NCBI GenBank assembly: GCA_003599755.1
Contig: QZJO01000001.1
Coordinates: forward strand, 5,222-69,221
Origin: Candidatus Parcubacteria bacterium
GTDB taxonomy: Bacteria > Patescibacteriota > Minisyncoccia > Sungbacterales > SURF-37
Direction: 5' to 3'
DNA: 64,000 nt
Shown: one piece after another, positions 6,552-55,339 of the stretch
Layout of the letters: every line of letters starts with the position of its first letter
Numbering within the stretch: the first letter of the stretch is position 1
The notes under the pieces: generated by a model
What the model was told of the DNA's origin: nothing
The model's database searches: none
The model's input: the letters and a program-made list of their open reading frames with translations, nothing else
Position numbers and translations under genes: made by a program

Positions 6552-6554
6552 TTC

Positions 6555-37608: not shown

Positions 37609-39555
37609 CTACGGCATCTGGGGCGGCACGGGTGGGAGTTCATAGATGAAGATCGAGGTGCCGGCCCGGGCCACGGGGCGGAAGGGTTTGAGCCAGGGAT
37701 AGCGGTCTTCCGGCCGCTGGTGGAATCCCGGGGCAGGCACGCCGTATGCCTGCATAAGGAACGTGCCGGATATCGCGAACCAGCCGCCTTCGGGCGGCCG
37801 GCCGCGCGCCGACCACCAGGGCTCGAACGCGGGTCCGAGTTCGTGGCGCGGGCTGCCGCCGCCGAAGTAGTCGAGGCGCACGGTTTGGATATTGCGCTCG
37901 CGCACGAAATCGCCAAGACGTAACAAATCCTGACCCCAGTCGTAATTGGAATCCGTGGCGATTTTATAGCCGTCGGTCACGCCGCCGCCGAGTTCATTGT
38001 AGTACGACAGATAGTACGGGTACGCTGCGACAACGCTCGCCAGCTGCCAGATGACGAGCGCGCCGACGACCATGTAGCGCGGCAGGGACGTGACATAGAT
38101 CGCGATTGCACGGCGGATCCATTCGCCCCAGCTTTTCACGTCGGTCTGCTTCCACGAGCGGAGCCAAGCGACGATTTCTTTCGAAACGAGCATGAATATG
38201 AACGGGAACGTGGGTAACACGTGGCGCACGCCGATGTTCAGGGGCGAGGTGATGCTCGAAGTCCAGTAGATGCCGATGAACACGAGTGCCGAGAATTGGA
38301 TGAAGTGGTCGCGCGTCCAGGTAAGCAGGGCTTCGAGATTCCATCGCGGGGATCGGTACACCCGCCGCACCGCGAAGATGAGCGCCAAAAGTGTCAGGAT
38401 ATGGAGCGCAAGCGGCTCTTTGAGCAGATACAGGATCGGGAAATACGTGCGCGTGCCGGCGGCCGATACCTCGCCGAGGAAGTATTGCGTATTGCCGCCC
38501 GCTGCCCGCTGCAGCACCATGAACAGGCCCGTGAGGTATTGCGCGAGCGGCCGGGTGAACGGCGTTTCGATGAGCGCGGTGTTGAAATTCACCCACGAGC
38601 GGAAACGGAATGAATTGAGGTTGATGACCGCGTCGCGCATCTGGGAAAGCGGTATCGCGCGGATCGCGGCATCGCGTTCGGCCCCGCCCGGCATGTTGGC
38701 CACCGCGCGGATCTCTTCGGCCGAGTATGCCGTGCCGTCGGGCCTCAGCGAGAGCGCGGGATAATCCCACACGTGCCATATATAGACCACCCAAATCAGA
38801 ATGATGCTGACGCCAATAGCGGCGCCCGCCTTCAGCGAGTTTTTGACGAATAGCGCGAACCGGTCGGGCCACGAGAGCTGTACTTTCGCCAGAGCCCACG
38901 CGACGAGCAATATGCCCCAGACGGGGATAAGGAGGATGAGAGAGAATTTCAGAAGCTGCGCGGTGCCGAACGCAAGGCCGGCGATCAAGATATTTTTGGG
39001 CGATGGTTCCTGGAGGAATTTGAGAAACGCGGCAATGCCGATGAAAAACGCGATCGCCGCGCCCAAATCCGTGGTGACGAAGCGCGAGTGCGTGATGAAC
39101 GTGGGCGACGCGGCGTAGAGAAATACCGTCAGGAGCGCGACGCGCTCGCCGAAATGGCTTTTGGTGAAGCGCCACAGCATCCAGCCGAACACGCCGGCCA
39201 AAAGAATGAGCGGCAGGCGCATGAGCCAAAGAATTCGAGCAGGATCGTTACCCGCTTCATAGAGGAAGATCGCGCCTTGCGTCCATTGGCCGTTGATGTC
39301 TTCGCGCCAGGACTGCGTGTCGGTAGGGAAGCGGACGTCGGCGAATACGAGCGGCAGCGCGGCCAGGTCCTTGATGAGCGGCGGATGCTCCGGATTCAGG
39401 CGATAGTCCTTTTCGAATACGTAGGCGTAGCCCGCCGGCACGTGCGCGAGCTCATCCATGATGGCAGCGTCGTTCCGTACCGACGCGGCCATGACGATGA
39501 CCATCGCGGCAAGGATCAGAATCGGCGTGGCCTGGCTGCGGAGCGCTGCGATCAT
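37609..39555 (-). CDS. GT-C fold glycosyltransferase, family 39-like (ArnT/PMT-type, lipid-linked sugar donor)
   Basis: About 13 TM helices, N-terminal loop 'MDELAHVPAGYAY' (DE motif), large C-terminal periplasmic domain. Confidence 0.7.
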   Translation of the reverse strand: MIAALRSQATPILILAAMVIVMAASVRNDAAIMDELAHVPAGYAYVFEKDYRLNPEHPPLIKDLAALPLVFADVRFPTDTQSWREDINGQWTQGAIFLYEAGNDPARILWLMRLPLILLAGVFGWMLWRFTKSHFGERVALLTVFLYAASPTFITHSRFVTTDLGAAIAFFIGIAAFLKFLQEPSPKNILIAGLAFGTAQLLKFSLILLIPVWGILLVAWALAKVQLSWPDRFALFVKNSLKAGAAIGVSIILIWVVYIWHVWDYPALSLRPDGTAYSAEEIRAVANMPGGAERDAAIRAIPLSQMRDAVINLNSFRFRSWVNFNTALIETPFTRPLAQYLTGLFMVLQRAAGGNTQYFLGEVSAAGTRTYFPILYLLKEPLALHILTLLALIFAVRRVYRSPRWNLEALLTWTRDHFIQFSALVFIGIYWTSSITSPLNIGVRHVLPTFPFIFMLVSKEIVAWLRSWKQTDVKSWGEWIRRAIAIYVTSLPRYMVVGALVIWQLASVVAAYPYYLSYYNELGGGVTDGYKIATDSNYDWGQDLLRLGDFVRERNIQTVRLDYFGGGSPRHELGPAFEPWWSARGRPPEGGWFAISGTFLMQAYGVPAPGFHQRPEDRYPWLKPFRPVARAGTSIFIYELPPVPPQMP

Positions 39556-39596
39556 GATGTCAGTATACCAAACTATCCCCGTATCAGGCGCCGCAG

Positions 39597-41282
39597 TTAT
39601 TCATACCATTCGGCAGCCAACGACGGGGGGATAAAAATGCTGAAATCCGCGGGCGCCTTGCCGACCAGGTGCCCGAACCGTTCGCGGATGCGGCCGGCGA
39701 TACCCGGTTCCAATCCGTTGAGAGGCAAGATCAGCATGTTGTCCGGGTTCTGGGGTCGGATATCTTCGAGGCGCGTCACGTAATGGATGTTCCGCTCCGC
39801 GCGCGGCCCTTCTTCAAAGGAATTGGTCGCGAACATGACGGTCTGGGCCGGCGCGGGAATGCCGCGGATCGGATCGCCCGAGAGATTGACGAGCACGAAT
39901 TTTTCGATATCCGGCGGCAATTTGTCGAGGAATTTTCCGGCGTTCCAAAGATCCGCGGCAAACGCGCCTTGCGTCGGCACGGCGTTCGGGAAGCGGATGA
40001 AGTAGGTGCGGTATGCCACGAGCGGTACCCAGAGCACGACAATGAGCGCGAGCAGGGCAAGCTCCACGTTGAGGCGCCGCAGTCGGGCGCGGAAGCGCGA
40101 TGAAATGCCGGTGCGGCGGGCGAGCGCATCGAGCTTCGTACCCCCGGCGACCAAGAGTCCGATAAACCCCCAGGCGGCCAGAAGCATCGTCGGCACGATC
40201 ATGCCGATGGCGCGCAGCGCGTGGGGCAGGCCTTCGCGCGTTAGCGTGGCGGGCAGCATCATGACCAGAAACCACCAGATGAGCAATGCGGCGGGCAACT
40301 TTTGGATGCCGGGTTTTTTCCAAAGCGAGCGTACCGCAAAATACGCGCCAAAGAGGAAGAATGCTCCCACGATCGGATCCAGCTCCGGTCGGCAGGCGAA
40401 ATTATGCCGCGGGTTGCAGTCGCCCCAGATGTGGAGCATGCCGAGCGTAAGGATGTTGGATTTTACAAACTCCTGCAGCGGGCGTTCGGCCGAAAAGATG
40501 GATACCTGATGGCCGCGGCCGGTAAAGTCGGCCGGGTGTCCGGCGAAGTATAGGATGAGCGGCGCGACCGCAATGAGTGCGGCGAATGCGACGAGTGCGA
40601 GCACGCAGGGCACGCAGGGCTGGGCTTTGCGCCCGCGCCACCAGAGCCAGAGCGCCCAGATCGCGGGTACGGCCGCGATAAACGGCATGAAGCGAAAAGC
40701 GATATACGTATGGAGTCCGAGGCCGAGCACGAAGCCGGCGAGTGCTGCGGCGATGATGCTGCCGGTTCGCAGCGACCGCAACAAAAGCGCCATGCCGAGC
40801 GCGGACAACAGCGGCACCAGTATCGCGCGAAAGCCGATGCGGGAGAAATTGATATGCCAGAAACTCGTCGCGACGAAGAACGCGGCGGCAAGGCCGATCC
40901 AGTCATGCTCCGGAATGCCGAACCACCGGCGTTCGGGAACGCCCACGGCCGGGCGGAAGAGCTCTCGCCCGAGGAAAAAGACCGCCGCAACGGTGAGGAT
41001 GCCGACCAGAGCCGATACGAGGCGCAGCGCCCAAGGATCGGGCCCGAAGACCGCGATCGACAGCGCCTGGACATTGATGAAGAATGCCTCGCGGCCGTTG
41101 TTCTCCGGATAAAAAACGCCGAAGTCGCCGGTGTGGAGCGCTTCGACTGCGTTGTTGCCATTTGCCGCCTCGTCCGGATACAGGCCCGGCGGGATAGTGG
41201 GAAGCTGCCAAAGCCGGAAAAACGCCGCGAGCGCCAGGACGGCAATCAGCAGGACGACAGTTTTCCGGGAAAGCGGCGTCAT
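39597..41282 (-). CDS. Second GT-C fold glycosyltransferase, family 39-like
   Basis: 'LPTIPPGLYPDEAANGNNAVEA' DE motif after TM1, polytopic. The start is set at MTPLSRK; the track ORF extends spuriously to 41513. Confidence 0.7.
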   Translation of the reverse strand: MTPLSRKTVVLLIAVLALAAFFRLWQLPTIPPGLYPDEAANGNNAVEALHTGDFGVFYPENNGREAFFINVQALSIAVFGPDPWALRLVSALVGILTVAAVFFLGRELFRPAVGVPERRWFGIPEHDWIGLAAAFFVATSFWHINFSRIGFRAILVPLLSALGMALLLRSLRTGSIIAAALAGFVLGLGLHTYIAFRFMPFIAAVPAIWALWLWWRGRKAQPCVPCVLALVAFAALIAVAPLILYFAGHPADFTGRGHQVSIFSAERPLQEFVKSNILTLGMLHIWGDCNPRHNFACRPELDPIVGAFFLFGAYFAVRSLWKKPGIQKLPAALLIWWFLVMMLPATLTREGLPHALRAIGMIVPTMLLAAWGFIGLLVAGGTKLDALARRTGISSRFRARLRRLNVELALLALIVVLWVPLVAYRTYFIRFPNAVPTQGAFAADLWNAGKFLDKLPPDIEKFVLVNLSGDPIRGIPAPAQTVMFATNSFEEGPRAERNIHYVTRLEDIRPQNPDNMLILPLNGLEPGIAGRIRERFGHLVGKAPADFSIFIPPSLAAEWYE

Positions 41283-41345
41283 TCTTTTTAGTATACTCGA
41301 AGCGTTGAGAATGCGGAGGGAAAGATACTGACAGGTCGGTCTGAG

Positions 41346-41374
41346 TTGACTTGTCGATGTAAATCGGTTACAAT
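41346..41374 (+). promoter_or_regulatory. Canonical sigma70-type promoter (TTGACT-17-TACAAT) for the lytic transglycosylase gene
   Basis: TTGACTtgtcgatgtaaatcggtTACAAT. Downstream SD AAGGAGG 7 nt before the GTG. Confidence 0.45.
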
Positions 41375-41421
41375 ATACGCGGCTTTCAGATCCTTCAGAC
41401 AGGGGCAAGGAGGTTTCTATC

Positions 41422-42153
41422 GTGCGTTGGGTCTTCGCAGCGACGCTCGCGACGGCAGTACTGTCTATTCCGGCTCTGCCGGTAGCTGCGCAGTGCTCGT
41501 ATCTCGAGGGCAATGAAGTGGTCTACACCAACGGGCGGTGCCCGCGCCGCGCGGCGCGGCCCGTGAAGCCCGTCGCCCATCCGGCCAAGCCGATGAGGGT
41601 GACGATCAGCGAGCCCGCGCGCCGGGGCGAGGTTCCCGACATACCATTGGACCTTCTGGTCAATGAGGCCGGCCGGCAGCACGGCGTGTCACCCACGCTC
41701 ATCCGCGCGGTCATCGACGTGGAATCCGGCGGCAATCCCCGTGCGGTATCGTCGAAGGGCGCACAGGGTCTCATGCAGCTGATGCCGGGCACGGCCAACA
41801 TCCTCGGCGTGCGAAACCCCTTTGACCCGTGGCAGAACGTGGATGGCGGAGCTCGTCATCTCCGGGATCTGCTGGAACGGTTCGGCGGCAACGTGGCGCT
41901 CGCACTCGCGGGCTACAACGCCGGCGCCGGCGCGGTCGCAAAGTATGGCGGCATCCCGCCGTACGATGAGACCAAGGCCTACGTGCGAACCGTCATGTCA
42001 CTCTGGCGGGGAGAAGAGAAACCCCGTATCTGGCAGGTAAGGAACCCGCCGCAGTCGGCGCGCGTCGCGTCAATGCGACCCATCTACCGATGGCGAGAGG
42101 GGGCCGTCGTCGTGTACAGTAACGTCCCGCGCCAGAACAACGCAGCGGACTGA
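41422..42153 (+). CDS. Secreted soluble lytic transglycosylase (SLT domain)
   Basis: Signal peptide 'MRWVFAATLATAVLSIPALPVAAQ', 'LIRAVIDVESGGNPRAVSSKGAQGLMQLMPGTA' SLT catalytic motif. GTG start with SD. Confidence 0.75.
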   Translation: MRWVFAATLATAVLSIPALPVAAQCSYLEGNEVVYTNGRCPRRAARPVKPVAHPAKPMRVTISEPARRGEVPDIPLDLLVNEAGRQHGVSPTLIRAVIDVESGGNPRAVSSKGAQGLMQLMPGTANILGVRNPFDPWQNVDGGARHLRDLLERFGGNVALALAGYNAGAGAVAKYGGIPPYDETKAYVRTVMSLWRGEEKPRIWQVRNPPQSARVASMRPIYRWREGAVVVYSNVPRQNNAAD

Positions 42154-42240
42154 AGAAGTAGGCATTACCGCCGGGCGCGAGTCGCGCCCGGCGTGCTTCT
42201 TTAAAACAAACGACGGTCTTGATCGAATTCCGCGTATCTA

Positions 42241-42269
42241 TTGACTTTTTGTTACTTTTGGTGTAATAT
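42241..42269 (+). promoter_or_regulatory. Strong sigma70 promoter with extended -10 (TTGACT-17-TGnTAATAT) and about 130-nt structured leader
   Basis: TTGACTttttgttacttttggTGTAATAT. The leader contains a GCGCGC-TTTT-GCGCG hairpin and the SD GAGGAGG. Confidence 0.5.
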
Positions 42270-42405
42270 GAATATATCCTGAAACGCTGGTAAAAGGCCG
42301 ATTTCCAGAGGCCTTTGAAAACCGCATAGATAGGTAAACAGGAGGTATCGAAACCCCCAACGCAGCACCAACCTGCGCGCTTTTGCGCGTACGAGGAGGA
42401 TGAAA

Positions 42406-43416
42406 ATGGCCGATCGAGGCATCGGATTCTTAAAGGAACCGGAGCTTACCCGGAAGTGGAAGGTGCGCATTAATGCCGCTCCGCCCCGGTGGGGCGACCA
42501 TGGCCCCGAGTCCATGGTGTCCGTCGTTCTCATGAACGAGGCCGGCGAAGGCGTGGAGGGGGAGCTCATCCTTCGGATCAACGGCGATGAGTCGGAGATC
42601 AAGACGAAGGACAACGGCACGACGAAGAAACTGGCGACCGGTCTGCGCATCGGCACGAACGCGTTTGCGGCCCATCTCAAGGGCCGGCCGTCCGTGCACG
42701 ATACGGTAGAGCTGGATGTCGAGCCGGAAGTCGGTCTTGCGGTTGCAGGTCCGACTTCAACCGAAACCGATGTGGAAGCTACGGCGACCGCAACGGTGTC
42801 GCTGGCCAGCAGGCCGATCAAGAACGGCGAGGTTCAGTTTTACCTGGACGGCGCCAAGAGCGGTGCCCCGCAGCCGATCGATACCGACGGCAGCGCGAGC
42901 TACACGTTCACCGGTCTGAAGAAGGGAACGCACGGCATCTGGGCGGTGCTGAACGGCACGACGCTGCGTTCCAAGACCGTGAACGTTGAGGTTAAGGAGC
43001 AGAAAGCGAAGAAGCTCGCCGAGCCGTTTCCGCAGGCGGAAGGGGATGATGGTGTCTATATCATCTCATTCGTCCTGACTCACGAAGATGGTACGGCGGC
43101 GGTCAACGAGCCGGTTCGGTTGCTGCTTAATCGCTACGGCCGCAAAGCCGACGAGGGCAGCGACATCGTCGATAGGAATACCGACGATCACGGCCGCTTC
43201 CGGTATCTGCTGACGTTCACCGAGCGAGAGTGCGATGTCATGGTGCAGGTACGCGGCTGGCAGAAGGACAGCATCAAAAATCTGCACGGCCCTATGGGGC
43301 GCAGGCCCGTGGAGCTGGTCGAGCCGCGCGAAGAGGACGTGAATCGAGGAATCATTCACGCTGCGCTCGCTGCGTTGCGTCGACAGCGTGAAAAGAACCG
43401 CGAAATGAGGTCCTAA
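42406..43416 (+). CDS. Hypothetical protein with bacterial Ig-like (Big) beta-sandwich domains, no signal peptide
   Basis: 'VQFYLDGAKSGAPQPIDTDGSASYTFTGLKKGTHGIWAVLNGTTLRSKTVNVEV' is a typical Big-domain pattern. Strong SD. The track start 42400 is too close to the SD, so 42406 is preferred. Confidence 0.5.
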   Translation: MADRGIGFLKEPELTRKWKVRINAAPPRWGDHGPESMVSVVLMNEAGEGVEGELILRINGDESEIKTKDNGTTKKLATGLRIGTNAFAAHLKGRPSVHDTVELDVEPEVGLAVAGPTSTETDVEATATATVSLASRPIKNGEVQFYLDGAKSGAPQPIDTDGSASYTFTGLKKGTHGIWAVLNGTTLRSKTVNVEVKEQKAKKLAEPFPQAEGDDGVYIISFVLTHEDGTAAVNEPVRLLLNRYGRKADEGSDIVDRNTDDHGRFRYLLTFTERECDVMVQVRGWQKDSIKNLHGPMGRRPVELVEPREEDVNRGIIHAALAALRRQREKNREMRS

Positions 43417-43436
43417 TACTTCAGCGAGGAGGAGAT

Positions 43437-44207
43437 ATGTTCGAGCGGGGGGATCTGCTTGTTCTTGCCGGGATTGCAGCGCTTGGCTGCGTCCTTGGCG
43501 TCATCTGGTCGTTGGTCCGACGGGGGCATCTCGCCGGACTGATGCGCTCGGTACGTAACCGAACCGGGCGGATCGTGGCACGAGTGTCGCAATCAGTTCG
43601 CTGGCTGGCTGCGCGCGCGCGAGGCGCTGTACAAATCCTGTGGTTTCGCGCGAGGCCGTGGACGATACGGCATGCGCGTCGCCGAAGAGATCGCATGGCG
43701 CTTCGCGCGTTCTATCTCGTTCGCTGGCTCTGCGCCACGAACAACAACCGCCTCAAGGCCATGTGGATCGTTACGGTCGTGTGGTTCCTCTGGAACTGCC
43801 TGATCATCGGCGTCGGGCCGTCCGCGTCTGAAGCGCCGACGCAAAGCTTCCACTACCCGCACTATCGGACGCCCTCTCCGGCACCAACCCACGTCCTACA
43901 GTCCCTGTGGGACATCTACGGCTTCTGGTCATGGGCGCTCTGGTTTCCATGGCTTCTCGCGACCCTCGTCTACACGCCCATCGCGTTCCGCGATGAGGTG
44001 CAGAACGCATTTCGTCGCGCGACGCAGAAGTTCCGCGAACGGCGCGGCGAGGCGCAGCAGGTGCGGGTGGTGCCTCAGCCAGGTGCTCGGCATCCTGTTC
44101 CCCAGCCGGCTGGCGGAGGCGGGTTAACGCTCGCGCAGTACCTGACCTTCGAGTTCATCACGGACTTCATCCAGGAGATAATCGCACACCGCGTTTTCAC
44201 GCGGTAG
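43437..44207 (+). CDS. Hypothetical 3-TM membrane protein with Arg-rich cytoplasmic loop
   Basis: TM helices at about aa 6-25, 109-130 and 160-185. SD GAGGAGG 4 nt upstream. Confidence 0.5.
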   Translation: MFERGDLLVLAGIAALGCVLGVIWSLVRRGHLAGLMRSVRNRTGRIVARVSQSVRWLAARARGAVQILWFRARPWTIRHARRRRDRMALRAFYLVRWLCATNNNRLKAMWIVTVVWFLWNCLIIGVGPSASEAPTQSFHYPHYRTPSPAPTHVLQSLWDIYGFWSWALWFPWLLATLVYTPIAFRDEVQNAFRRATQKFRERRGEAQQVRVVPQPGARHPVPQPAGGGGLTLAQYLTFEFITDFIQEIIAHRVFTR

Positions 44208-44220
44208 GAGGCAGCTGCGC

Positions 44221-45807
44221 ATGAATCTTCCGACGTTCACCTGGCGGCAGATCTGGGTCACCGGACTGCTGGCCATCATCGCGAGCTTCACGATGTGGAA
44301 GGGCGGCCTGACGACCGCCTTCTGGACGACACTCGGCATCTTCGGCCTGGCCGTTCTCATGGGTCTGGCGGGGATGGTGGGTGGCGTTGGTGGTCGGATA
44401 GCGGCCATCGCGCTCATGATCTGGGCGATCATGTCGGTGGTGTATCCCGCGGTCGGCGCCGCGTTCAGGGCGGAATGGCCGATGCTTTCCTGGGCTCTCC
44501 ACAACAGTAAGGCCATCAAGGACATGGAGCTGGCCGACTGGGTCAATCCAAGCGCGTCTCGCGCGCGGCTCGGTCTCGCTGATCACTGCAACAAGATGGA
44601 GGATCTGCGGGGGGAATACGTCGAGAACGTACTTCTCGAGCGGTATAACGAGACGCGACGGCGCGCCATTCCGGAGAAACCCGGCTACTGGGCGAGCTGG
44701 GCGATCTGGCTTGGTTGGCGGGAAGCGCCAAAGCCGGTCTTCCCCATGCCGCAGCGCTTCGCGGACATGAAGCTTGGCTTCAAGCTCGAGCGCGTGAAGA
44801 AGCCCGAGGTTCGAGACGGCAAGGGCAACCTCGTGTCGGCAGTAGTGACGGAACAGTACGAGGCCTCGATCGCGGATGTGGTCATGATCATCGAGAACGA
44901 GCGCGAGGAGTGCCGCGCGCTGTATGCGCGCGCCGGCAAGCCTGAGCTGCCCGACCGGGACAAGAACGGGAAGTCGTTGGAGTCGCTGACCAAGCACTTC
45001 TCCGATGACCCGCGCCAGTGGCTCCGCGATGTGTTCGTGGGGCCGTGGGCCGTCTGGTCGTTCGCGTTGCTCATCATTGCGGGGCTGCTCCTCGGCCTCG
45101 TGACCAGGCGCGTCTCGTTCAGCATCGCGTTCGGATACATCATCATCACGCTGATCATGGCGGCTGCCATCGACTGGGCTGCCAGTGAGGAGCGCGAGTG
45201 GTTCAAGGGCAAGGCCTACGGAGCAGTCACGACGCGGCACGAGCTTCCTCAGAAGCGCGGCGGCCGTCCGGATGTACCCGGTTCGTATTCGTACGAACGG
45301 TCGGTCCCGCCCACGCTCATCACCCGCGAGGATGATGCGCTCATCGTACGCATCGACGGTTCGCTGCGGCACGGGCACGTCGTTGCAAAGCTCGAGCCGG
45401 GCCAGACCGCGGTGGTCACGTACCTGGGCGGCATGATCGCATACAACTCGCACGGCGACCGGTTCCTGCCATGCGGCCGAGACCATCGCCGGCTCCAGCA
45501 GTGGGAGGTGTTTCCGTACTCTCCAGAACTGCGGCCGTTCGCGATCGGGGTATACCTCGATCCGCCCGGCCTGGGGTCGATGAGCGATCCCACGCAGTTG
45601 CCGTGCGGCAAGGAGCCGCTGAGGATCAAGAACGCCGGTACCGTGCCGGCCAAGCTCGTCTTCATCTATAACACCGCCATGCAGTATCGAGAGGTGCTGG
45701 ACGGCAAGGTGCGGACGGACGGCTACACGTACGCCGGCTGGGACTGCGCAGTGGACCCGGAGAAGAACTGCGCGCGGTTCAAGATCGTCGTGAAGGAGTC
45801 GTCGTAA
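44221..45807 (+). CDS. Hypothetical 5-TM membrane protein with two large extramembrane domains (C-terminal domain Cys-containing)
   Basis: 3 N-terminal TM, about 200-aa soluble domain, 2 TM, then about 220-aa C-terminal domain with 5 Cys. SD TAGGAGG 9 nt upstream. Confidence 0.5.
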   Translation: MNLPTFTWRQIWVTGLLAIIASFTMWKGGLTTAFWTTLGIFGLAVLMGLAGMVGGVGGRIAAIALMIWAIMSVVYPAVGAAFRAEWPMLSWALHNSKAIKDMELADWVNPSASRARLGLADHCNKMEDLRGEYVENVLLERYNETRRRAIPEKPGYWASWAIWLGWREAPKPVFPMPQRFADMKLGFKLERVKKPEVRDGKGNLVSAVVTEQYEASIADVVMIIENEREECRALYARAGKPELPDRDKNGKSLESLTKHFSDDPRQWLRDVFVGPWAVWSFALLIIAGLLLGLVTRRVSFSIAFGYIIITLIMAAAIDWAASEEREWFKGKAYGAVTTRHELPQKRGGRPDVPGSYSYERSVPPTLITREDDALIVRIDGSLRHGHVVAKLEPGQTAVVTYLGGMIAYNSHGDRFLPCGRDHRRLQQWEVFPYSPELRPFAIGVYLDPPGLGSMSDPTQLPCGKEPLRIKNAGTVPAKLVFIYNTAMQYREVLDGKVRTDGYTYAGWDCAVDPEKNCARFKIVVKESS

Positions 45808-46037: not shown

Positions 46038-46073
46038 CTACATTCCAACATTCTTGAGAATGTTGGAATGTTA
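46038..46073. promoter_or_regulatory. Perfect 14-2-14 AT-rich palindrome P1 (CATTCCAACATTCT-TG-AGAATGTTGGAATG) upstream of the gtrA-like gene; putative operator
   Basis: Read directly. Shares the core CATTCT-TG-AGAATG with P4 at 55308. Confidence 0.45.
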
Positions 46074-46185: not shown

Positions 46186-46791
46186 ATGCAAAAGCGCGAT
46201 GTGTTCGGGAGTATCGTCATCGGCATTGTTGCCGGTTTTTTGATGTATCTGATCGGCACGAATCTGCCCGATCTGGCCCCCGCGGTTCGGGATTGGCTCT
46301 GGGTGCTACCCATCGGCTTTCCGGTTGCCACGCTTGTTGCCATGGTCGTGGGCTCGTTCATCGGCCGGCGCATCCCGGTTGTCTATCAGCTCACCAAGTT
46401 CTTGCTCGTCGGCGGGCAGAACTTCCTTATTGATCTTGGCGTCCTCAATCTCCTGATCGCCTCGACCGGCATCGAGCAGGGCACCGAGATCGTCGTTTTC
46501 AAGGCGGTATCGTTCGTCGTCGCGGTGATCGCGAGTTTCTTTTGGAACAAATTCTGGACGTTCCGGTCGCTGTCCGTGGAGCGCGCCGGGTTCCAATTTT
46601 TTGAATTCTTCATCGTTTCGGCCATCGGCCTTGGCATCAACACCGGCTCGTTTGCCCTGGCCAACAACGTCGTCGGCGCGCAGTACGGCCTGAGCCCGGA
46701 GGCATGGGCCAACGTGAGCGCGGGCATTGCCGCGATCATCGGCCTGATGTGGAACTTCATCGGCTACAAATTCATCGTCTTCCGCCGCTAA
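46186..46791 (+). CDS. GtrA-family membrane protein (lipid-linked sugar translocation/polysaccharide synthesis)
   Basis: C-terminal 130 aa match the GtrA fold ('KFLLVGGQNFLIDLGVLNLLI', 'FFWNKFWTFR'). Extra N-terminal TM helices. Confidence 0.65.
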   Translation: MQKRDVFGSIVIGIVAGFLMYLIGTNLPDLAPAVRDWLWVLPIGFPVATLVAMVVGSFIGRRIPVVYQLTKFLLVGGQNFLIDLGVLNLLIASTGIEQGTEIVVFKAVSFVVAVIASFFWNKFWTFRSLSVERAGFQFFEFFIVSAIGLGINTGSFALANNVVGAQYGLSPEAWANVSAGIAAIIGLMWNFIGYKFIVFRR

Positions 46792-46816
46792 CGGAGGGCT
46801 CGTGCGAGTAGATTAC

Positions 46817-46848
46817 TTATTCTAATGTTCTTAAGAACATTAGAATAA
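46817..46848. promoter_or_regulatory. Perfect 32-nt palindrome P2 (TTATTCTAATGTTCTTAAGAACATTAGAATAA) 14 nt upstream of arsR; putative ArsR operator
   Basis: Read directly. AT-rich 16-0-16 palindrome typical of ArsR/SmtB operators. Confidence 0.5.
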
Positions 46849-46861
46849 AACAAAATGGAAT

Positions 46862-47146
46862 ATGGCAGAGCGCGGGGGAAAGTCGTTTCGAGAGTTAGAG
46901 CGCATCGTGCGGGGGTTTTCAAACCATCGCCGCATCGAAATCATGGGATTGCTCGATCGGATGCCGGAGCTTTCCTTGCTGGATGTCGCCAAATCGCTGC
47001 ATATCAATTTCAAAACTGCATCTGAGCATATCCGCCGGCTTGCCATTGCCGGCCTTGTTCTTAAAAGAAATGACGGCCATTCGGTGCGCCACGCTCTTGC
47101 GCCCCGTGGCAAACTTATTCTTAAGTTCTTAAGAACATTAGAATAA
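46862..47146 (+). CDS. ArsR/SmtB-family winged-HTH transcriptional regulator (no metal-binding Cys motifs evident)
   Basis: 94 aa. 'RRIEIMGLLDRMPELSLLDVAKSLHINFKTASEHIRRLAIAGLV' HTH. The stop overlaps the downstream ATG (TAATG). Confidence 0.7.
   Translation: MAERGGKSFRELERIVRGFSNHRRIEIMGLLDRMPELSLLDVAKSLHINFKTASEHIRRLAIAGLVLKRNDGHSVRHALAPRGKLILKFLRTLE
47115..47146. promoter_or_regulatory. Near-perfect copy of palindrome P3 (TTATTCTTAAGTTCTTAAGAACATTAGAATAA) overlapping the arsR 3' end and the start of the large secreted-protein gene
   Basis: Read directly. Differs from P2 at 2-3 positions in the left arm. Confidence 0.5.
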
Positions 47147-50100
47147 TGGCGCGCGGAAAACGACCGTGGATTCGCATCGTAGTGGGCGCCGGTCTTCCGC
47201 TGGTCGGGATCTGTATTGCCGTGCGAGCCGAGGCGGCGCAGTGCATTACCGAGCCGTTTGCGCAGGGATACTTTTTTAGTGACTACGAAGCGGTTGCATA
47301 TCAAGACGGGTTTCTGGCGCTTCATTATCGGATCGGCACCGAGCAGTTTAATGATGGCAGGACATTTCGCCTCGGATTTTCGGTATTCTCTGATACCTGC
47401 GACACGGCAATGCTTGATGTTTTCAATCAATTTGTCGTTGCGTTTCCGCCGGCTACGCAGGGATTTAGTATTCGTTTTACTTCCTCTTCGACATATGAGG
47501 TATGGAACGACGATATGAATACCCGTGCGGAATGCGCGGGCTGTCAGGGCGTTCTTCCTGTCTTTCCCTCCTACTACCAGATGCGCGTGAATGGCTTTAT
47601 TGATGGAGGCGCAAGCGTACTTCACGGAACATCGCATACGATTATCGAACATGCGGCCGGGCCGCCCATTCGAGGCGCGGCGCCTAACCCTCCCGATGCT
47701 TGCCCCGAGCAGGGTCTGAATGCCACGGGATACTACTTTGATGCGTTCGAACGCATCGAGCGATTGAACGGCGAGCTAGTGTACCAATTTCGACTCAAGA
47801 CGCCCTTTAATGACGGGAGAGGCGGTATCCTCTTCTTTGAGCTTTTCGATGCGGCATGCAATTCGCAGGGAATAATTCCATTTTACGATCGATTGGCGAT
47901 GACACCGCGTTCCCGGTATTTCAGCCTCCGATTTACCGATCGAACGAAATATGAGTTTTGGGACGATGACCACGAAATGCCTATTGATTGTCCTGCTTGT
48001 TCCGGCGAGTTACCGCCAGTGCTGTCGAATGGCGAGCCCTATGCATACGTGAGAGTGCGCGGCCGGATAGATGGAGCTGCTTCAACGCTTTCGTCCACGC
48101 TATTCCCTCTTGAAGGCGATGTCCCGTGTTGCTCGAACGTGCTATTTCTGCCGGGGCTCCAAGGGAGCCGGCTGTATCGTCCTGGCGAGGATCAACTTTG
48201 GGAGCCGACGCGGAATCAAGATATTGAAGAACTATATCTCGCAAACAACGGGCAGAGTTTGAATGCCGAGATTTATACCCGGGATATCATCGATGAGGCG
48301 CCGCGGATCATCAACGGCTATAACGTATATAAAAAATTCATCCAGTTCATGGATGAAGAATTAGTGGGGCAGGGAATCATCGATGAATGGAAAGCGATTC
48401 CCTATGACTGGCGACTCGACCTACCGTATATCATGCACGACGGTAAGAAAGTCGGCGAGACGGAGGGCGAAGACAATATCTCGTACATTGGCTCCACATC
48501 CACGCCGTATCTTATTCAAGAACTCGAGCGACTCGCGAATACATCGCGATCGGGTCGCGTGACGATCATCGCGCACTCCAACGGCGGGTTACTGGCCAAA
48601 TATTTGTTATCACAGATCGCCCCTCCTCATAGCCAGTACCATCATCTTTTCGCGAAGATCGATAAAGTAATACTCGTGGCGGTACCGCAGATCGGAACGC
48701 CTGCGGCAATCGAAGGCCTTCTCCACGGCGATGAACCTCAGCTGGGGGCAAATGTCGGTGTTACGGATTGGGGTTTTCTCGTAGACGAAGAGCGAGCGCG
48801 CGAACTTGCTGAGAATATGCAAAGCGCTTACAACCTTTTGCCGTCGCAGACGTATTTCGAGTTGGTGCAAAGTCCTATGGTGGAATTCGAATCGTCGACG
48901 GCGCGCGCCTACGATTTTCGCTCTTTTTACGACGGCACTATCGACTCGACCGAAGAGCTCAAGAGTTTTCTTGCGGGCGAACCGCATATACAGGGTCGTA
49001 GCGAACCGTTTGCCGACGACGAAGAATCGCCGAATGTACTGGATGCAAATATGCTCGCGTCGGCTATGCAGATGCATGCCGTGCTCGATAATTGGGCCCC
49101 TCCGGGCGGTATTGAAGTGGTCCAGATTGCCGGCTGGGGCATCAAGACCGTTCGCGGGATAAAGTATTCGTGCGGATTCTTCACATGCTCATCATTGAGT
49201 ACGCTTGACCGGGAGATTCTAAAAACGCACGAGGGAGACGGGACGGTTGTGCTGCCAAGTGCGGTAGCGATGGAGGAAGCGGAGAATGTTGAGAAATATT
49301 ATGTAAATCTGAGTAATTATAACGGAGAGCTTAGAAACCTCCGGAGAAACCGCGATCACGCGAGTATTTTAGAAGCCGATCCTACAAGGGCGTTTCTTAA
49401 AGAGATTATTAAAAATGATAAAAATTTAATAAAGCACGTAACATCCTCCATCCCGTCGGGCGAAGATCTCCTTACTCTTGATTATGCTATTCATTCACCT
49501 GTTGATATCCATCTGTATGATGCAGACAGTAATCATACCGGTCCTATTTCTAACCCATTACAGAACTCTGATTTCTTGGCATATGAAGCAACTATTCCAA
49601 ATTCCTATTATTGGGAATATGGTGAGACAAAATATGCTGGCTCAGATGCCATGACTGGAACGCTGGTGCAGTTGGTTGGTACGGCTACCGGCACATTTAC
49701 ATTCGATATTATCGAGAATCGGGGAGATGAAATTTTGGCAACAACAACCTTTAGAGATATTCCTGTTGGGATAGGATCCGTGCTTACCATGCGGATTGAT
49801 ACGATTGCGAGTTCAACATCGTTGCGAATGGATTTTGATGGAGATGGAATCATCGAAACGGATATTCTTCCGGGCGAAGGCATTACAACGAATGAGCTCA
49901 TTGGAATTATGAAAGGTCTCGTTAAAACGTTCAGCCTAACCGAGGAAGAGGAGAAAGGGCTTATTAAAGCGCTTGATAAATTCGAGAAAAATCTTGGCAA
50001 GGATTTCAAAGACGAAGAAAAAAGAAAAAAGAAGCTCGGACAGGCACTAGATTCAGTTGCGGGAAAGATCGAAAAATATGGGCAGAAAGAAGTTCTTTCG

Positions 50101-50163
50101 CCGGATGAGTTATTGCAGTTGATAAATTTTATAGATGAAATTAGGACTAAAGTGTTAGATTGA
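47146..50163 (+). CDS. Large secreted multidomain protein: signal peptide, two tandem paralogous Cys-containing domains, LCAT/PGAP1-like alpha/beta-hydrolase (phospholipase/acyltransferase-like) domain, low-GC beta-rich and coiled-coil C-terminal module
   Basis: Signal peptide 'MARGKRPWIRIVVGAGLPLVGICIAVRAEA'. Internal duplication (ECAGCQGVLP / DCPACSGELP). 'AIPYDWRLDLPYIM' resembles the LCAT 'APYDWRL' motif. Nucleophile elbow 'VTIIAHSNGGLLAKY'. GC drops from about 52% to about 38% at about 49290. Confidence 0.6.
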   Translation: MARGKRPWIRIVVGAGLPLVGICIAVRAEAAQCITEPFAQGYFFSDYEAVAYQDGFLALHYRIGTEQFNDGRTFRLGFSVFSDTCDTAMLDVFNQFVVAFPPATQGFSIRFTSSSTYEVWNDDMNTRAECAGCQGVLPVFPSYYQMRVNGFIDGGASVLHGTSHTIIEHAAGPPIRGAAPNPPDACPEQGLNATGYYFDAFERIERLNGELVYQFRLKTPFNDGRGGILFFELFDAACNSQGIIPFYDRLAMTPRSRYFSLRFTDRTKYEFWDDDHEMPIDCPACSGELPPVLSNGEPYAYVRVRGRIDGAASTLSSTLFPLEGDVPCCSNVLFLPGLQGSRLYRPGEDQLWEPTRNQDIEELYLANNGQSLNAEIYTRDIIDEAPRIINGYNVYKKFIQFMDEELVGQGIIDEWKAIPYDWRLDLPYIMHDGKKVGETEGEDNISYIGSTSTPYLIQELERLANTSRSGRVTIIAHSNGGLLAKYLLSQIAPPHSQYHHLFAKIDKVILVAVPQIGTPAAIEGLLHGDEPQLGANVGVTDWGFLVDEERARELAENMQSAYNLLPSQTYFELVQSPMVEFESSTARAYDFRSFYDGTIDSTEELKSFLAGEPHIQGRSEPFADDEESPNVLDANMLASAMQMHAVLDNWAPPGGIEVVQIAGWGIKTVRGIKYSCGFFTCSSLSTLDREILKTHEGDGTVVLPSAVAMEEAENVEKYYVNLSNYNGELRNLRRNRDHASILEADPTRAFLKEIIKNDKNLIKHVTSSIPSGEDLLTLDYAIHSPVDIHLYDADSNHTGPISNPLQNSDFLAYEATIPNSYYWEYGETKYAGSDAMTGTLVQLVGTATGTFTFDIIENRGDEILATTTFRDIPVGIGSVLTMRIDTIASSTSLRMDFDGDGIIETDILPGEGITTNELIGIMKGLVKTFSLTEEEEKGLIKALDKFEKNLGKDFKDEEKRKKKLGQALDSVAGKIEKYGQKEVLSPDELLQLINFIDEIRTKVLD

Positions 50164-50166
50164 AAT

Positions 50167-50592
50167 ATGTCTCATAGACAGAAAATAGCTGTAATAGTTA
50201 CTATCTCCGTATTAATTTTCGGTTCTGTATGGTTTGTTTGTGCAGAAGAATGTCCTAATATAAGTCGCTTCCTAGATCCTGAATCTGAAGAGGCAATAGT
50301 GCTTTCTGCAGTTTTATTCCTTCCATCGATTTTCTTAATTTCACTTATGCTCTTCTTTTTTGGAGAAGAGACATTCCGCCTTTGGTTTAATTTTGCCAAA
50401 TTTTACTTACCAATTACGATCGCGTTTATTATTTGGTCTGCGTATGTTTCAAGCAGCACGAGCTGGGGAATAAGTACCGGATCGGATGCTGAATCTTTCG
50501 CTTGGTTTTTTGCGATTCTATTCCTCATTATTTCTGTATCTCTAATCTCCTGGAAATCTTGGCGACTACGGAAAGGATCAGCAGGGAGATAA
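50167..50592 (+). CDS. Small 4-TM membrane protein (low-GC; immunity-protein-like placement)
   Basis: 141 aa with four hydrophobic helices, AT-rich codons. Starts 4 nt after the stop of the large secreted-protein gene. Confidence 0.5.
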   Translation: MSHRQKIAVIVTISVLIFGSVWFVCAEECPNISRFLDPESEEAIVLSAVLFLPSIFLISLMLFFFGEETFRLWFNFAKFYLPITIAFIIWSAYVSSSTSWGISTGSDAESFAWFFAILFLIISVSLISWKSWRLRKGSAGR

Positions 50593-50655
50593 CGGAGTGA
50601 CATCGGATGTCGGTACCGCTATTTAACTCCTGGCCCGTTTCAGTTTTATTCTAAT

Positions 50656-50877
50656 ATGCTCGTTGCCGAAGGCAAACTTGATGCGCGCATTGCGTTTGAT
50701 CCTTGGGGTTATGACTATGATTTCGCCTCCGGCGTATTGCTCATTGCCGAAGCCGGCGGCCGCGTGACAAACATTGGCAGCACGACCTACGACTACCGTA
50801 ATACGAATTTCATTGCCGCAAATCCGGTAATTTTTGAAGAACTCACGAAAGGTCCGGACGCCATATTCCCATTGTGA
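50656..50877 (+). pseudogene. C-terminal remnant (about 73 aa) of an inositol-monophosphatase-family (SuhB/CysQ-like) gene; the 5' part is missing
   Basis: 'LVAEGKLDARIAFDPWGYDYDFASGVLLIAEAGGRVTN' matches the IMPase C-terminal 'WDxAAGxLIxxEAGGxVTD' region. No N-terminal metal-binding motifs occur upstream, where the low-GC insert lies. Confidence 0.55.
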
Positions 50878-51407
50878 AAAAGCAAACGAATTGGATTGTT
50901 TTTACTGGCGCTCCAAACTCGGGGAAGTCCAGTGCGCTCGAGCGAATGTCATTCCTCGGATATAAAACCGTGCCCGAGAACGCCCGCCTTTTCATTGATC
51001 AAGAAGTGAGCCAAGGAAGAGCGGTCAGTGATATCCGCGCAGATGAGCAAGAGTTTCAAAGAAAGATTCTCGCTCTTAACAAGGAAGTAGCTGAACGGTT
51101 CCCTTCCGAAGAACTTACGTTTTTTGATAGAGGTCTGGGGGACAGCATTGCGTATTTCACCGTGCACCGGATGGATCCTGCGCCTGCCATTCAAGCAGCG
51201 CGAGATATTCAATACCGAAAAGTATTTCTGTTTGATCGTTTGGCATCACAACGAAATCAATTTGGCGATGAACAGATAGCCAGCGAAATTGAAGCGGCGA
51301 TCGAGCGAGCCTATACGGACTTGGGATATGAGATCACTCGGGTTCCGGCGGTTTCCATACCGGAACGAGTCACATTAATTTTGGATACTCTTGAGTTAGA
51401 GGGGTAA
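50874..51407 (+). CDS. P-loop NTPase (AAA_28/predicted kinase-ATPase family)
   Basis: 'IVFTGAPNSGKSSALE' Walker A, 'FFDRGLGDSIAY' Walker B-like. About 50% GC. Confidence 0.6.
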   Translation: MKKQTNWIVFTGAPNSGKSSALERMSFLGYKTVPENARLFIDQEVSQGRAVSDIRADEQEFQRKILALNKEVAERFPSEELTFFDRGLGDSIAYFTVHRMDPAPAIQAARDIQYRKVFLFDRLASQRNQFGDEQIASEIEAAIERAYTDLGYEITRVPAVSIPERVTLILDTLELEG

Positions 51408-51517
51408 GGGTTGTCCGATACTATTCATAATTTGCCCTGTGAAATACCGCAATGGCCTCTCTTGAGGCGATAGGGTATCTTCAAGGAGCTTAGAATCATA
51501 AGCCCGCACGGATATTT

Positions 51518-52558
51518 ATGCCCAAGGAAGAAAAAGCCGAGAAACTGCGCGCATTGGAAGATACGGTCAAAGAGCTCCAGGACAAGTTCGGGGAAGGGGC
51601 GCTGATGATGCTTGGCGAGGCCCGGAAGGTCAACGTGGATGTCATCCCGACCGGCTCGCTTGCCCTGGATATGGCCCTTGGCGTGGGCGGGATGCCCAGA
51701 GGCCGGGTGGTGGAGATATTCGGCCCCGAATCTTCGGGCAAGACCACGCTCGCGCTCCATATCGTTGCCCAAGCCCAAAAGAAGGGCGGGCTTGCGGCAT
51801 TCGTGGATGCCGAGCATGCCCTGGACCCGGACTATGCCAAGCGCCTCGGCGTGAAGGTCAACGAGCTTTTGATATCCCAGCCCGACACCGGCGAGCAGGC
51901 CTTGGAGATCGTGGATTCGCTCGTGCGCTCGGGTTCCATGGACGTGGTGGTGATCGACTCGGTGGCCGCGCTCACACCCCGGGCCGAGATCGAGGGCGAC
52001 ATGGGCCAGCAGCACGTCGGCCTGCAGGCGCGCTTGATGTCGCATGCGCTCCGGAAATTGACGGGGTCGGTGTCGCGCACCAAGACCGTGGTGATTTTCA
52101 TCAACCAGATACGGATGCAGATCGGCATCATGTTCGGCAACCCCGAGACCACGCCCGGGGGCAAGGCCCTGAAATTCTATTCGTCCGTGCGCGTGGAGGT
52201 GCGCCGTGCGGCGCAAATCAAGAAAGGGGACGAGATCATCGGCAACCGGGTGAACGCCAAGGTAGTGAAGAACAAGGTTGCCGCGCCGTTTCGTCGCGCG
52301 GAGTTCGACATCTTCTACAACGAAGGCATTTCGCATGAGGCCGAATTGCTGATCCTTGGCGAAAAGTACGGGGTACTCAAGAAATCGGGTGCTTCGTACC
52401 TGTTCGGCGGCACGCGCCTCGGCCAGGGCTTTGATAACGCCCGCAATTTCCTGAAGGAAAATGGGAAGATCGCCGATGAGATAGCCAAAAAAATCAAAGA
52501 CGCCGCGGCTTCCGGCGTGGTCCCGGAACCAAAGGGCAAAGGAAAAGAGGAGGATTAG
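51518..52558 (+). CDS. recA: Recombinase RecA
   Basis: '[19 protein letters not shown]' Walker A, 'VVIDSVAAL', L2 loop. 346 aa. Confidence 0.95.
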
Positions 52559-54564: not shown

Positions 54565-54761
54565 GGCGATGTGCTCAAACTCTAGCAAACGAGCCGTGGT
54601 TTTCCAATTGACTTTTCATATCACGAATGGTACCTTGGCGCAAGATAGACGACCTTTTGAGCGTGTTCGAGCGGGAGAAAGGCCCCGTGGCTTTCGCAGG
54701 CGCGCGGCATGCGCGTCTGGCATGTTCGGGTACGAGAATGTTCGTTTCCCGGGAGGCCATC

Positions 54762-55217
54762 ATGGCAACGGCGGAGAAGCGGTCGCAGTCGCAAACCAAC
54801 GCATTACCGGCAGCGCCGGACGTCGGCGCCCTCGTGACTCGGCTGGAGGCACGCGCGCTGCACTTCTGGTTCACCCTCGCATACCGCGATCGGCCGGACG
54901 ATCCCTGGCACCTCGTGAAGATCGCCGAGCTCAGCGATGAGATGGTGGCGCATGCCACCATCGGCGAGTTCGCCGTCAATCCGACCGGCTGCCAGCCCGT
55001 CTGCAGCGGCCAGGCGCGGGTCGAATGGCATCCAACGACCGATTCCGAGCTGCGGATGTTCATCGCATTCTGGCGCGACGGCGTCAACGGCTTTCGCCGG
55101 TGGTTCATCCGCCTCATGCAGGAGCACCCGCGCCTCAGGGAAGAGGACCGCGTACGGATCACCGACGCGCTCGCCGCCATGTTGCGCACCCGGCGCGTCG
55201 GGCACGACAGCAACTGA
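54762..55217 (+). CDS. Hypothetical protein (no recognisable domain)
   Basis: 152-aa ORF from MATAEKRS. High-GC codon bias consistent with the host. The track ORF is extended to 54627. Confidence 0.35.
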   Translation: MATAEKRSQSQTNALPAAPDVGALVTRLEARALHFWFTLAYRDRPDDPWHLVKIAELSDEMVAHATIGEFAVNPTGCQPVCSGQARVEWHPTTDSELRMFIAFWRDGVNGFRRWFIRLMQEHPRLREEDRVRITDALAAMLRTRRVGHDSN

Positions 55218-55307
55218 ACCTGCGGCATCGCGCCGCACCTCGCCCCAGAAGGACCCATCCAGAGCCGGATGGGTCCTTTCGCTTTTGCGGCGGGGCTTCG
55301 ATCGCAG

Positions 55308-55339
55308 ACATTCTCACATTCTTGAGAATGTGAGAATGT
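55308..55339. promoter_or_regulatory. Perfect 15-2-15 AT-rich palindrome P4 (ACATTCTCACATTCT-TG-AGAATGTGAGAATGT) between convergent genes
   Basis: Read directly. Same core and TG spacer as P1. Confidence 0.45.

Follow-up and report, generated by a model that had tools for sequence, protein, structure and literature searches.

In a window of 64,000 nucleotides (nt) from a Candidatus Parcubacteria bacterium (contig QZJO01000001.1), the stretch that precedes recA, at positions 46800-51450, has a GC content far below that of its surroundings. This segment encodes a small winged-helix regulator whose gene is framed by palindromes, a 1005-residue hydrolase that we assign to the LCAT type, a four-helix membrane protein of 141 amino acids (aa) called p141, the remnant of an inositol monophosphatase (IMPase) gene and an AAA_28 P-loop protein. 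All the open reading frames (ORFs) listed in the original prediction, which had been drawn from the sequence without database searches, are present. Our analysis singles out two of these genes, those of the hydrolase and of p141, as a module that recurs in hundreds of species.

The hydrolase is predicted to be secreted, as had been proposed: it begins with a signal peptide (modelled with a predicted local distance difference test score, pLDDT, below 50 over residues 1-30), and 96 of 116 homologues have a similar signal-like N-terminus, with almost none showing another hydrophobic helix. An AlphaFold2 model built with 53 homologues (mean pLDDT 88.5, predicted TM score 0.75) arranges the chain into beta-sandwiches at residues ~38-160 and 192-316, an alpha/beta domain with a helical cap (330-755), a further sandwich (776-907) and a helical tail (915-1003). 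The two N-terminal sandwiches resemble immunoglobulin (Ig) and fibronectin type III (FnIII) domains and are paralogous, with 38% identity and E 6e-24 in a direct domain-against-domain comparison, a repeat that self-BLAST of the whole protein missed. The duplication was thus correctly recognised at the outset, but its units are of about 150 aa and not 200, and the conserved cysteine pair attributed to each of them stands only in part: C33/C85 and C186/C238 are conserved across homologues, together with the CxxC formed by C282/C285, whereas the CxxC of domain 1 is not.

The central domain matches PF02450 above threshold (E 2.3e-9, 37.4 bits versus a gathering score of 21), residues 389-742 covering positions 61-389 of the 392 in the profile, and the same family is precomputed for nearly all 120 listed homologues. 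Besides the serine and the PYDWR residues, H477-S478 and G480-G481 of the AHSNGG elbow are invariant in a 53-sequence alignment, and the combination Ser478-Asp698-His738 is the pattern expected of a putative LCAT-type Ser-Asp-His enzyme. Searched against the PDB with Foldseek, the model retrieves lysosomal phospholipase A2 (LPLA2; 4x92, 4x90, 4x95 and 4x97) at the top with E ~1e-11, the best being 4x92 at E 8.6e-12 and a TM score of 0.67-0.70 of the 377-residue target. Next comes human LCAT (E 1.5e-9 to 1e-7), with Tle4 (E 3.7e-8, TM 0.35) and Geobacillus lipases after it. Identity to the LPLA2 and LCAT structures is 16-17%, and matches of the family profile to LPLA2 (E 0.011) and Tle4 (E 0.027) are confined to the surroundings of the nucleophile elbow. 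Profile, modelled fold and motifs agree in placing the hydrolase in the LCAT family, as the original prediction had suggested from PYDWR and AHSNGG. Source annotations of the homologues read 'alpha/beta hydrolase', 'cell surface protein' or 'hypothetical'.

The profile of the p141 family describes four hydrophobic helices with two outward loops of ~18 residues and positively charged N- and C-termini, from which an N-in/C-in topology is predicted; its conserved positions are C29, W73, F76, F119, S123 and I127. A word-indexed search returned a single match to p141, and the family was recovered from the ORFs of related loci and by an exhaustive profile search of 1.84 billion representatives, which yielded 383 clusters at E <=1e-3. 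Almost all of them are free-standing and 120-160 aa long, and a few are tandem fusions (P0330, P0370, P0390). Contigs retrieved with p141 representatives in search of orphan copies measured 1-3 kb and were cut at the gene. Pfam has no family for p141, eight of 46 members giving sub-threshold matches to DUF4418, and the PDB holds no related solved structure. In some loci a single hydrolase is followed by tandem, divergent p141 copies of 27-44% identity, three in L018 and two in L019, L035 and L043. Altogether, p141 appears to represent an undescribed family of membrane proteins that is translationally linked to the hydrolase.

How general this pairing is was assessed in a scan of one genome per species. 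Relatives of the hydrolase occur in at least 523 species-representative genomes, essentially all of them Patescibacteria and several with two loci; they include Kaiser-, Taylor-, Yonath-, Giovannoni-, Lipton-, Ryan-, Nomura-, Lloyd- and Moranbacteria, Paceibacterota and others. Eighty loci were retained for neighbourhood work. The p141 query itself matched in 56 of them (phmmer), and a hidden Markov model (HMM) made from the initial matches placed a same-strand p141 homologue directly after the hydrolase in 62 of the 68 loci with at least 450 nt of sequence downstream of the hydrolase. The gap between the two genes has a median of 4 nt and ranges from -25 to 114. In three of the six loci that depart from this, the place is taken by a small polytopic ORF that the family HMM missed; in another, the hydrolase is frameshifted and a normal homologue follows it. 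The small membrane protein thus keeps the place of cognate partner in which it had been cast. No third recurrent gene emerged when the neighbouring ORFs of the 80 loci were clustered all against all: with shadow ORFs discounted, the next-commonest neighbours (rplJ, rplL, Y1_Tnp-like and PaaX-like genes, HTH_20 regulators and an ABC exporter) occur in nine loci or fewer each. Given this adjacency and the lack of a third recurrent gene, the functional unit is a two-gene module, whose existence we consider near certain. The island of five genes envisaged at the start does not survive as a unit. Homologues of the IMPase remnant, of AAA_28 and of GtrA, the product of the gene on the left border, were found beside the module in none of the 80 loci, the RecA query met one coincidental neighbour and the ArsR-like query two; the other genes here, namely the ArsR-like one, the IMPase remnant and that of AAA_28, count as local passengers.

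Across the family, the constant part of the enzyme consists of the LCAT domain and the C-terminal sandwich, which 79 of 81 proteins share. Seven of the 81 have the twin Ig-like domains and 14 the helical tail, and other N-termini carry beta-helix, NosD, cohesin-like or further modules. Judged by these sequences, the architecture looks more like that of a surface enzyme with exchangeable binding modules than like that of a polymorphic toxin. Since the two genes share a frame here, with the stop and one codon between them, a read-through fusion of hydrolase and p141 was considered; it was rejected because most gaps in homologous loci are not multiples of three, 4 nt being the commonest. Among the minor neighbours, rplJ lies 400-4600 nt downstream of the hydrolase in nine loci, and PaaX-like winged-helix genes flank the module in eight. 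The coordinates of all features are collected in Table 1.

Table 1. Features of the low-GC segment, its borders and selected related loci. Positions are those of the window unless a locus or residues are named.
Feature	Position	Strand	Basis or remark
1005-aa hydrolase ORF	47146..50163	+	ORF list
Signal peptide (predicted), residues 1-30	47146..47235	+	basic n-region, hydrophobic core 7-30, A-E-A before A31
Two paralogous Ig/FnIII-like beta-sandwich domains, residues 31-185 and 186-328	47236..48129	+	model, domain-versus-domain comparison
LCAT/LPLA2-like alpha/beta-hydrolase domain with cap, residues 329-760	48130..49425	+	PF02450, model, alignment
PYDWR motif	residues 419-423	+	Y420, D421, W422 and R423 invariant
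Putative nucleophile Ser478 in AHSNGG	48577-48579	+	invariant
Asp698 in GDGTV	49237-49239	+	invariant
His738 in NRDH	49357-49359	+	present in >=90% of 53 homologues
C-terminal beta-sandwich, residues 776-907, DxDGDG motif	49471..49866	+	model, alignment
Lys/Glu-rich four-helix tail, residues 915-1003	49888..50154	+	model; subset of homologues
p141, 141-aa four-helix membrane protein, cognate partner	50167..50592	+	3 nt after hydrolase stop
Tandem p141 arrays	L018:8105-9803; L019:8054-9302; L035:4908-6079; L043:2693-4608		
94-aa winged-helix regulator, ArsR/SmtB type, no cysteine	46862..47146	+	ORF, weak profiles
O1, perfect 32-nt palindrome with arms TTATTCTAATGTTCTT and AAGAACATTAGAATAA, presumed operator	46817..46848	.	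ends 14 nt before regulator ATG
O2, second palindrome copy, 30/32 identical to O1	47115..47146	.	inside last 11 regulator codons
Third, partial copy of the operator motif, GTTTTATTCTAATATGCTC	50643..50661	.	junction of p141 and truncated IMPase gene
IMPase-family gene remnant, 73-aa ORF, passenger	50656..50877	+	Inositol_P profile 201-261 of 271
AAA_28 P-loop protein, 177 aa	50874..51407	+	Pfam E 6.5e-25; GC 0.479
GtrA-family membrane protein, left border	46186..46791	+	Pfam; host-like composition, GC3 0.80
recA, right border, first gene of Sungbacteria-syntenic block	51518..52558	+	Pfam, synteny

The regulator is joined to the module by a TAA stop that overlaps the hydrolase ATG by 1 nt. Its profile matches are sub-threshold both for HTH_5 of Pfam (19.8 bits versus a cutoff of 22, E 7e-4) and for NF033788 HTH_metalloreg of NCBIfam (37.3 bits versus 55, E 1.7e-9), and its best solved relatives, HlyU (E 7e-4) and CadC, come out between E 7e-4 and 5e-3. 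With no metal-site residues and no cysteine in its 94 aa, a plausible assignment is an ArsR protein of the non-metal type; the cysteine-free character noticed originally is confirmed, whereas the scores for the family itself stay under the cutoffs. The palindromes reported on both sides of the gene are present. O1 contains a -10-like hexamer, TAGAAT, and O2 ends at the A of the hydrolase ATG; half-site matches with three mismatches or fewer are expected 0.05 times per shuffled window. The partial copy at 50643-50661 matches 46834-46851 as an inverted repeat (16/18) and 46817-46831 as a direct repeat (13/15), and it could mark the boundary of a cassette or provide an additional operator half-site. 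A scan for promoter and terminator consensus sequences gave counts no higher than shuffled sequence, and no promoter was assigned.

A comparable arrangement is found in locus L046 of a second genome, where an orthologous regulator (E 3.6e-16) is divergent from the hydrolase/p141 pair. Its intergenic region holds a 34-nt palindrome of related sequence, with arms ATTATTCTCTAATTCTG and CAGAATTAGAGAATAAA, and an exact 17-nt half-site lies just past the 3' end of the regulator gene. This likeness supports the view that regulator and palindromes are a real regulator-operator pair, which would sometimes travel with the module. Another locus, L001, has a separate HTH_5 regulator 2 kb downstream, with a 32-nt palindrome of its own (L001:10084-10115). 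The window also contains a different family of 32-nt palindromes, at 46040-46071 (arms ACATTCCAACATTCTT and GAGAATGTTGGAATGT), upstream of gtrA, and at 55308-55339 (arms ACATTCTCACATTCTT and GAGAATGTGAGAATGT), just downstream of ychF, between this gene and the ORF at 54575-55258. They share 11 of 16 arm positions with O1; a role as host operators for a related regulator is conceivable, as is one as bidirectional terminators.

The composition of the segment is foreign, in agreement with the initial description. Its GC content is 0.479, compared with 0.592 for the whole window and with a mean of 0.601 (standard deviation, sd, 0.013; minimum 0.575) for 4651-nt stretches elsewhere in it, and that of the core at 49290-50640 is 0.398. 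GC content at third codon positions (GC3) averages 0.762 in 17 host genes (sd 0.039, minimum 0.698), and the genes of the segment, at 0.32-0.57, lie 5 to 11 sd below them: 0.55 for the regulator, 0.54 for the IMPase remnant, 0.46 for AAA_28 and 0.32 for the 141-aa ORF. The hydrolase gene itself is 10.8 GC points under the rest of the window (gene-minus-flank value -0.108), beyond all of 72 homologous loci in other genomes (mean -0.003, sd 0.034, most extreme -0.084). Within this gene, GC3 steps abruptly from ~0.54-0.61 over the first 2100 nt to ~0.36-0.42 over the last 740-900 nt. The low region spans 49246-50592; most homologous loci are flat there, and L087, the locus of the closest homologue, declines with more noise. 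A past recombination at this step is possible. The core, described beforehand as one of 38% GC, cannot be taken as a separate insertion or as a sign of a second donor, since GC declines likewise in L087 and protein identity to the closest homologue is uniform across the step.

On the right, the segment is bounded by recA. The closest other RecA proteins (84-86% identity) come from Candidatus Sungbacteria, and in three Sungbacteria relatives the gene order downstream of recA (rpsR, ssb, rpsF, ychF, purD and beyond) is colinear with that of the window from 51494. The same three relatives have FtsK and two small ORFs upstream of recA, for which the window has no counterpart anywhere. As synteny runs only from recA onward, the low-GC segment ends exactly at the synteny breakpoint. 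An insertion beside recA, as first proposed, agrees with this right border; it is not matched on the left, where the flank is likewise not syntenic with the Sungbacteria relatives. The window has no tRNA gene, searches with Pfam, PADLOC and PHROGs gave no integrase or recombinase in the segment, and the only flanking repeat is the operator-like motif recurring at 50643-50661. A defence or phage origin was rejected, PADLOC and PHROGs giving only weak winged-helix noise. With no integrase, tRNA or phage signal and a left flank that is not syntenic, the horizontal acquisition of this foreign DNA is supported mainly by its composition.

The module evidently moves between genomes, as judged from this foreign composition, from a recombinase gene beside P0002, the closest homologue (locus L087, 62% identity over the C-terminal 69%), and from Y1_Tnp (IS200-like) transposase-type genes next to the module in nine of the 80 loci. 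The window would thereby document a horizontal movement of the module between candidate phyla radiation (CPR) lineages that differ strongly in GC content. In L087 (positions 1-7900 of a 41%-GC contig), the hydrolase adjoins smpB, a serine recombinase, AbiEi/AbiEii and a Fic/RhuM gene. Y1_Tnp lies 0-178 nt upstream of the hydrolase in L020, L022, L073 and L083 and 276-2003 nt downstream in L018, L034, L039, L060 and L080. A housekeeping operon can likewise harbour the module: in L001, a groundwater contig that encodes P0006, the hydrolase gene and the stop of a class II aminoacyl-tRNA synthetase gene overlap (L001:4887).

Enzymes of the LCAT family (LCAT, LPLA2, PDAT) pass an acyl chain from a glycerophospholipid to their serine and from there to water or to a hydroxyl acceptor; they are both transacylases and hydrolases, need no cofactors and work outside the cytoplasm. 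The hydrolase shares with this family (LCAT, PLA2G15, PDAT/PSAT) the alpha/beta-hydrolase fold with a cap (Foldseek E 1e-11 to 1e-9, TM 0.6-0.7), the PYDWR motif, an xHSxGG elbow and the conserved Asp (in GDGTV) and His, and like these secreted or luminal, cofactor-free enzymes it would act outside the cytoplasm. It differs in being bacterial and restricted to Patescibacteria, at 16-17% identity to the solved enzymes, and in being a multidomain surface protein of ~1000 aa with an exchangeable N-terminus and a conserved C-terminal sandwich. It is also paired with a four-helix membrane protein (62/68 loci), and CPR hosts have neither cholesterol nor lipoprotein.

The Tle1-5 effectors of type VI secretion systems (T6SS) and their Tli partners, to which the locus had been likened, offer a second comparison. 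As in Tle4-Tli4 (4r1d), a GxSxG-type lipase is encoded beside a small cognate protein in a mobile, horizontally transferred context, and a distant fold match to Tle4 exists (E 3.7e-8; elbow match E 0.027). However, the TM score to Tle4 is only 0.35, the hydrolase has a Sec signal peptide whereas Tle delivery depends on VgrG/PAAR, its enzyme part is constant while the targeting modules vary, and p141 is polytopic and has no soluble domain. Tli proteins are periplasmic soluble proteins or lipoproteins. T6SS genes are absent from the annotated neighbourhood in the window, and nothing resembling a T6SS was found in the 80 related loci. Membership in the Tle/Tli family is rejected on account of the Sec signal, the lack of a nearby T6SS and the four-helix nature of the partner, which leaves only the distant fold relation to Tle4.

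Looser parallels concern the regulator and other lipolytic enzymes of CPR bacteria. Like HlyU and other non-metal ArsR/SmtB proteins, the regulator is a small winged-helix protein with palindromic DNA at its own promoter, but it scores below all curated cutoffs, and its perfect 32-nt palindrome is longer than the classic 12-2-12 boxes. As in the SdpR-SdpI autorepressor circuit of Bacillus subtilis, the regulator shares an operon with a polytopic membrane protein and a secreted product, and SdpR gives a weak match here. Such a circuit was not adopted, SdpR scoring 19 bits against a cutoff of 100 and SdpI being hit by one of 46 p141 members at the level of noise (E 0.036). Among phospholipases of CPR bacteria, Vamp_34_196 of Vampirococcus is a secreted lipolytic enzyme for which a role in disrupting host membranes and providing lipids was proposed (PMC8080830), and a COG2267 lysophospholipase has been transferred to Paceibacteria (PMC12455944). 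These earlier cases differ from the present one in being single genes of other hydrolase families, with no LCAT type or membrane partner described. Full-text searches found no literature combining CPR or Patescibacteria with LCAT biology, and none of the papers mentioning PF02450 concerns CPR bacteria. That the combination matches no described system was therefore rightly anticipated, and what seems new is the lineage-wide pairing of a known enzyme fold with an undescribed family of membrane proteins.

Patescibacteria, or CPR bacteria, make up a large share of bacterial diversity, and most of them are unable to make fatty acids or phospholipids. Lysolipids are unusually abundant in CPR-enriched size fractions, in which they were proposed to relieve curvature stress; the bacteria concerned have no lipid synthesis, and a phospholipase A was suggested as the source of this enrichment, with no enzyme named (PMC7242380). 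Reviewers have stated that the mechanisms of lipid uptake and breakdown in CPR bacteria are unidentified (PMC11665869). The source of their membrane lipids is hence an acknowledged gap, for which the module, present in hundreds of species and often in several copies with different targeting modules, provides a concrete, clonable and testable candidate.

Because of the chemistry of the LCAT family and the lipid biology of CPR bacteria, we favour an action on the membrane of another cell. In this reading, to which we give a probability slightly better than even (about 0.55), an exported enzyme of the LCAT/phospholipase A2 type and its membrane partner attack or harvest the lipids of an attached host or neighbour. 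What follows combines our inferences on substrate, direction of action, p141 function and repressor binding. The enzyme would leave the cell by Sec export and be placed at the cell surface by its Ig-like modules, the variable N-terminal modules of the family serving as target adaptors. It would then form an acyl-enzyme intermediate with glycerophospholipids of the attached host or neighbouring cell, and release or transfer of the acyl chain would give a fatty acid and a lysolipid. The membrane protein p141 might tether the enzyme and receive the products, or else shield the producer's own membrane. Expression of the module, co-transcribed with the gene of the cysteine-free ArsR-type repressor, would be gated by O1 over the promoter region and by O2 at the start of the hydrolase.

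A more ambitious proposal, which we put forward only tentatively, is that the LCAT-like enzyme and p141 constitute the missing cofactor-independent device by which Parcubacteria acquire lipids. As a surface transacylase or phospholipase A, the enzyme would remove acyl chains or lysolipids from the attached host's membrane, and p141 would dock it and take the products into the symbiont membrane. If true, such a device would explain both the existence of CPR membranes without fatty-acid synthesis and their richness in lysolipids.

Several observations weigh against the interpretation that we favour. The PF02450 score is modest, and the profile similarity to solved LPLA2/LCAT structures is marginal (E 0.011). 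The link to an ArsR-like gene is rare, being seen in two other loci with phmmer, and the assignment of the regulator to its family is sub-threshold. Instead of being operators, O1 and O2 might function as RNA hairpins (-15.5 kcal/mol and z -4.6 for O1), in which case the O2 hairpin would sequester the start of the hydrolase. Without an integrase, a tRNA or a clean empty site, the 'island' amounts to a difference in composition and a one-sided break of synteny. Finally, divergent paralogues in tandem, as seen for p141, are what one would expect of immunity genes.

This last point bears directly on the best-surviving alternative, an antagonistic pair in which the lipase, exported through Sec, kills competitor or host cells and p141 is a membrane-embedded immunity protein. 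The pair would be a functional analogue of Tle/Tli or of the polytopic immunity proteins of pore-forming colicins. Such a role would suit the strict cognate adjacency of the two genes, the extra p141 copies of several loci, the presence of more than one pair in some genomes and the mobility of the module, seen in its foreign composition and its Y1_Tnp neighbours. The distant relation to the T6SS lipase Tle4 (Foldseek E 3.7e-8) and the report of PF02450 proteins as T6SS cargo (PMC3942780) point the same way. The polarity of the proteins is, however, opposite to that of polymorphic toxins, as the enzyme is constant and the N-terminal modules vary, and the ~18-residue loops of p141 offer little surface to occlude an enzyme of 430 residues. 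Moreover, PADLOC and PHROGs found no secretion or delivery system, and the very broad, lineage-wide distribution suggests a physiological role. We therefore hold this explanation to be possible but on balance unlikely. If correct, the pair would represent a novel form of antagonism in ultrasmall bacteria, a lipase toxin exported by Sec and countered by a polytopic immunity protein. Killing and the harvesting of lipids are in any case compatible and differ mainly in the job given to p141.

Compared with an attack on foreign membranes, a self-directed remodelling is improbable. Here the enzyme would act on the outer leaflet of the producer, for example to make lysolipids that relieve curvature stress in ultrasmall cells or to re-tailor scavenged lipids, and p141 would be its membrane receptor or regulator. 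The abundance of lysolipids in CPR-enriched fractions (PMC7242380), a dedicated partner in the producer's membrane and the established transacylase activity of LCAT-family enzymes, next to their hydrolase activity, would fit. Yet the variable N-terminal modules (beta-helix, NosD, Ig-like, cohesin-like) resemble adaptors for external targets, multi-copy and horizontally mobile genes are unusual for a housekeeping role, and the module was not detected at the Sungbacteria recA loci examined (21 kb of each).

Equally doubtful is a serine esterase of LCAT fold that would act on another ester of the host envelope (O-acetylated peptidoglycan, teichoic-acid esters or polyesters) next to a membrane protein unrelated to lipids: the low identity to LPLA2 and LCAT (16-17%), the cell-wall genes upstream (SLT transglycosylase, Big_3 surface protein, PMT_2 glycosyltransferases) and the carbohydrate-type beta-helix or NosD modules of some homologues are in its favour, but the top structural matches span the whole LPLA2/LCAT architecture including the cap and the membrane-binding parts, the next ones are true lipases (Tle4, Geobacillus lipases), and the family-specific PYDWR motif is invariant.

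The AAA_28 start overlaps the stop of the IMPase remnant by 4 nt. Directly upstream of gtrA, an envelope cluster of host composition (41422-45807) comprises the SLT lytic transglycosylase (41422-42153), the Big_3 Ig-like surface protein (42400-43416) as well as two membrane proteins (256 and 528 aa) without a Pfam match. Ahead of it, on the minus strand, lie the two PMT_2 glycosyltransferases (37609-41513). Aminoacyl-tRNA synthetases and a penicillin-binding protein (PBP) are among the other annotated neighbours in the window.

A second low-GC patch, at 3943-4758 (GC 0.43, GC3 0.42), encodes a 271-aa ORF with a LAGLIDADG_3 domain. With its stop overlapping the lepA start (4755), the ORF resembles a free-standing insertion of the homing-endonuclease type. 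A 13/16 match to the operator half-site lies inside this ORF, at 4661-4676.

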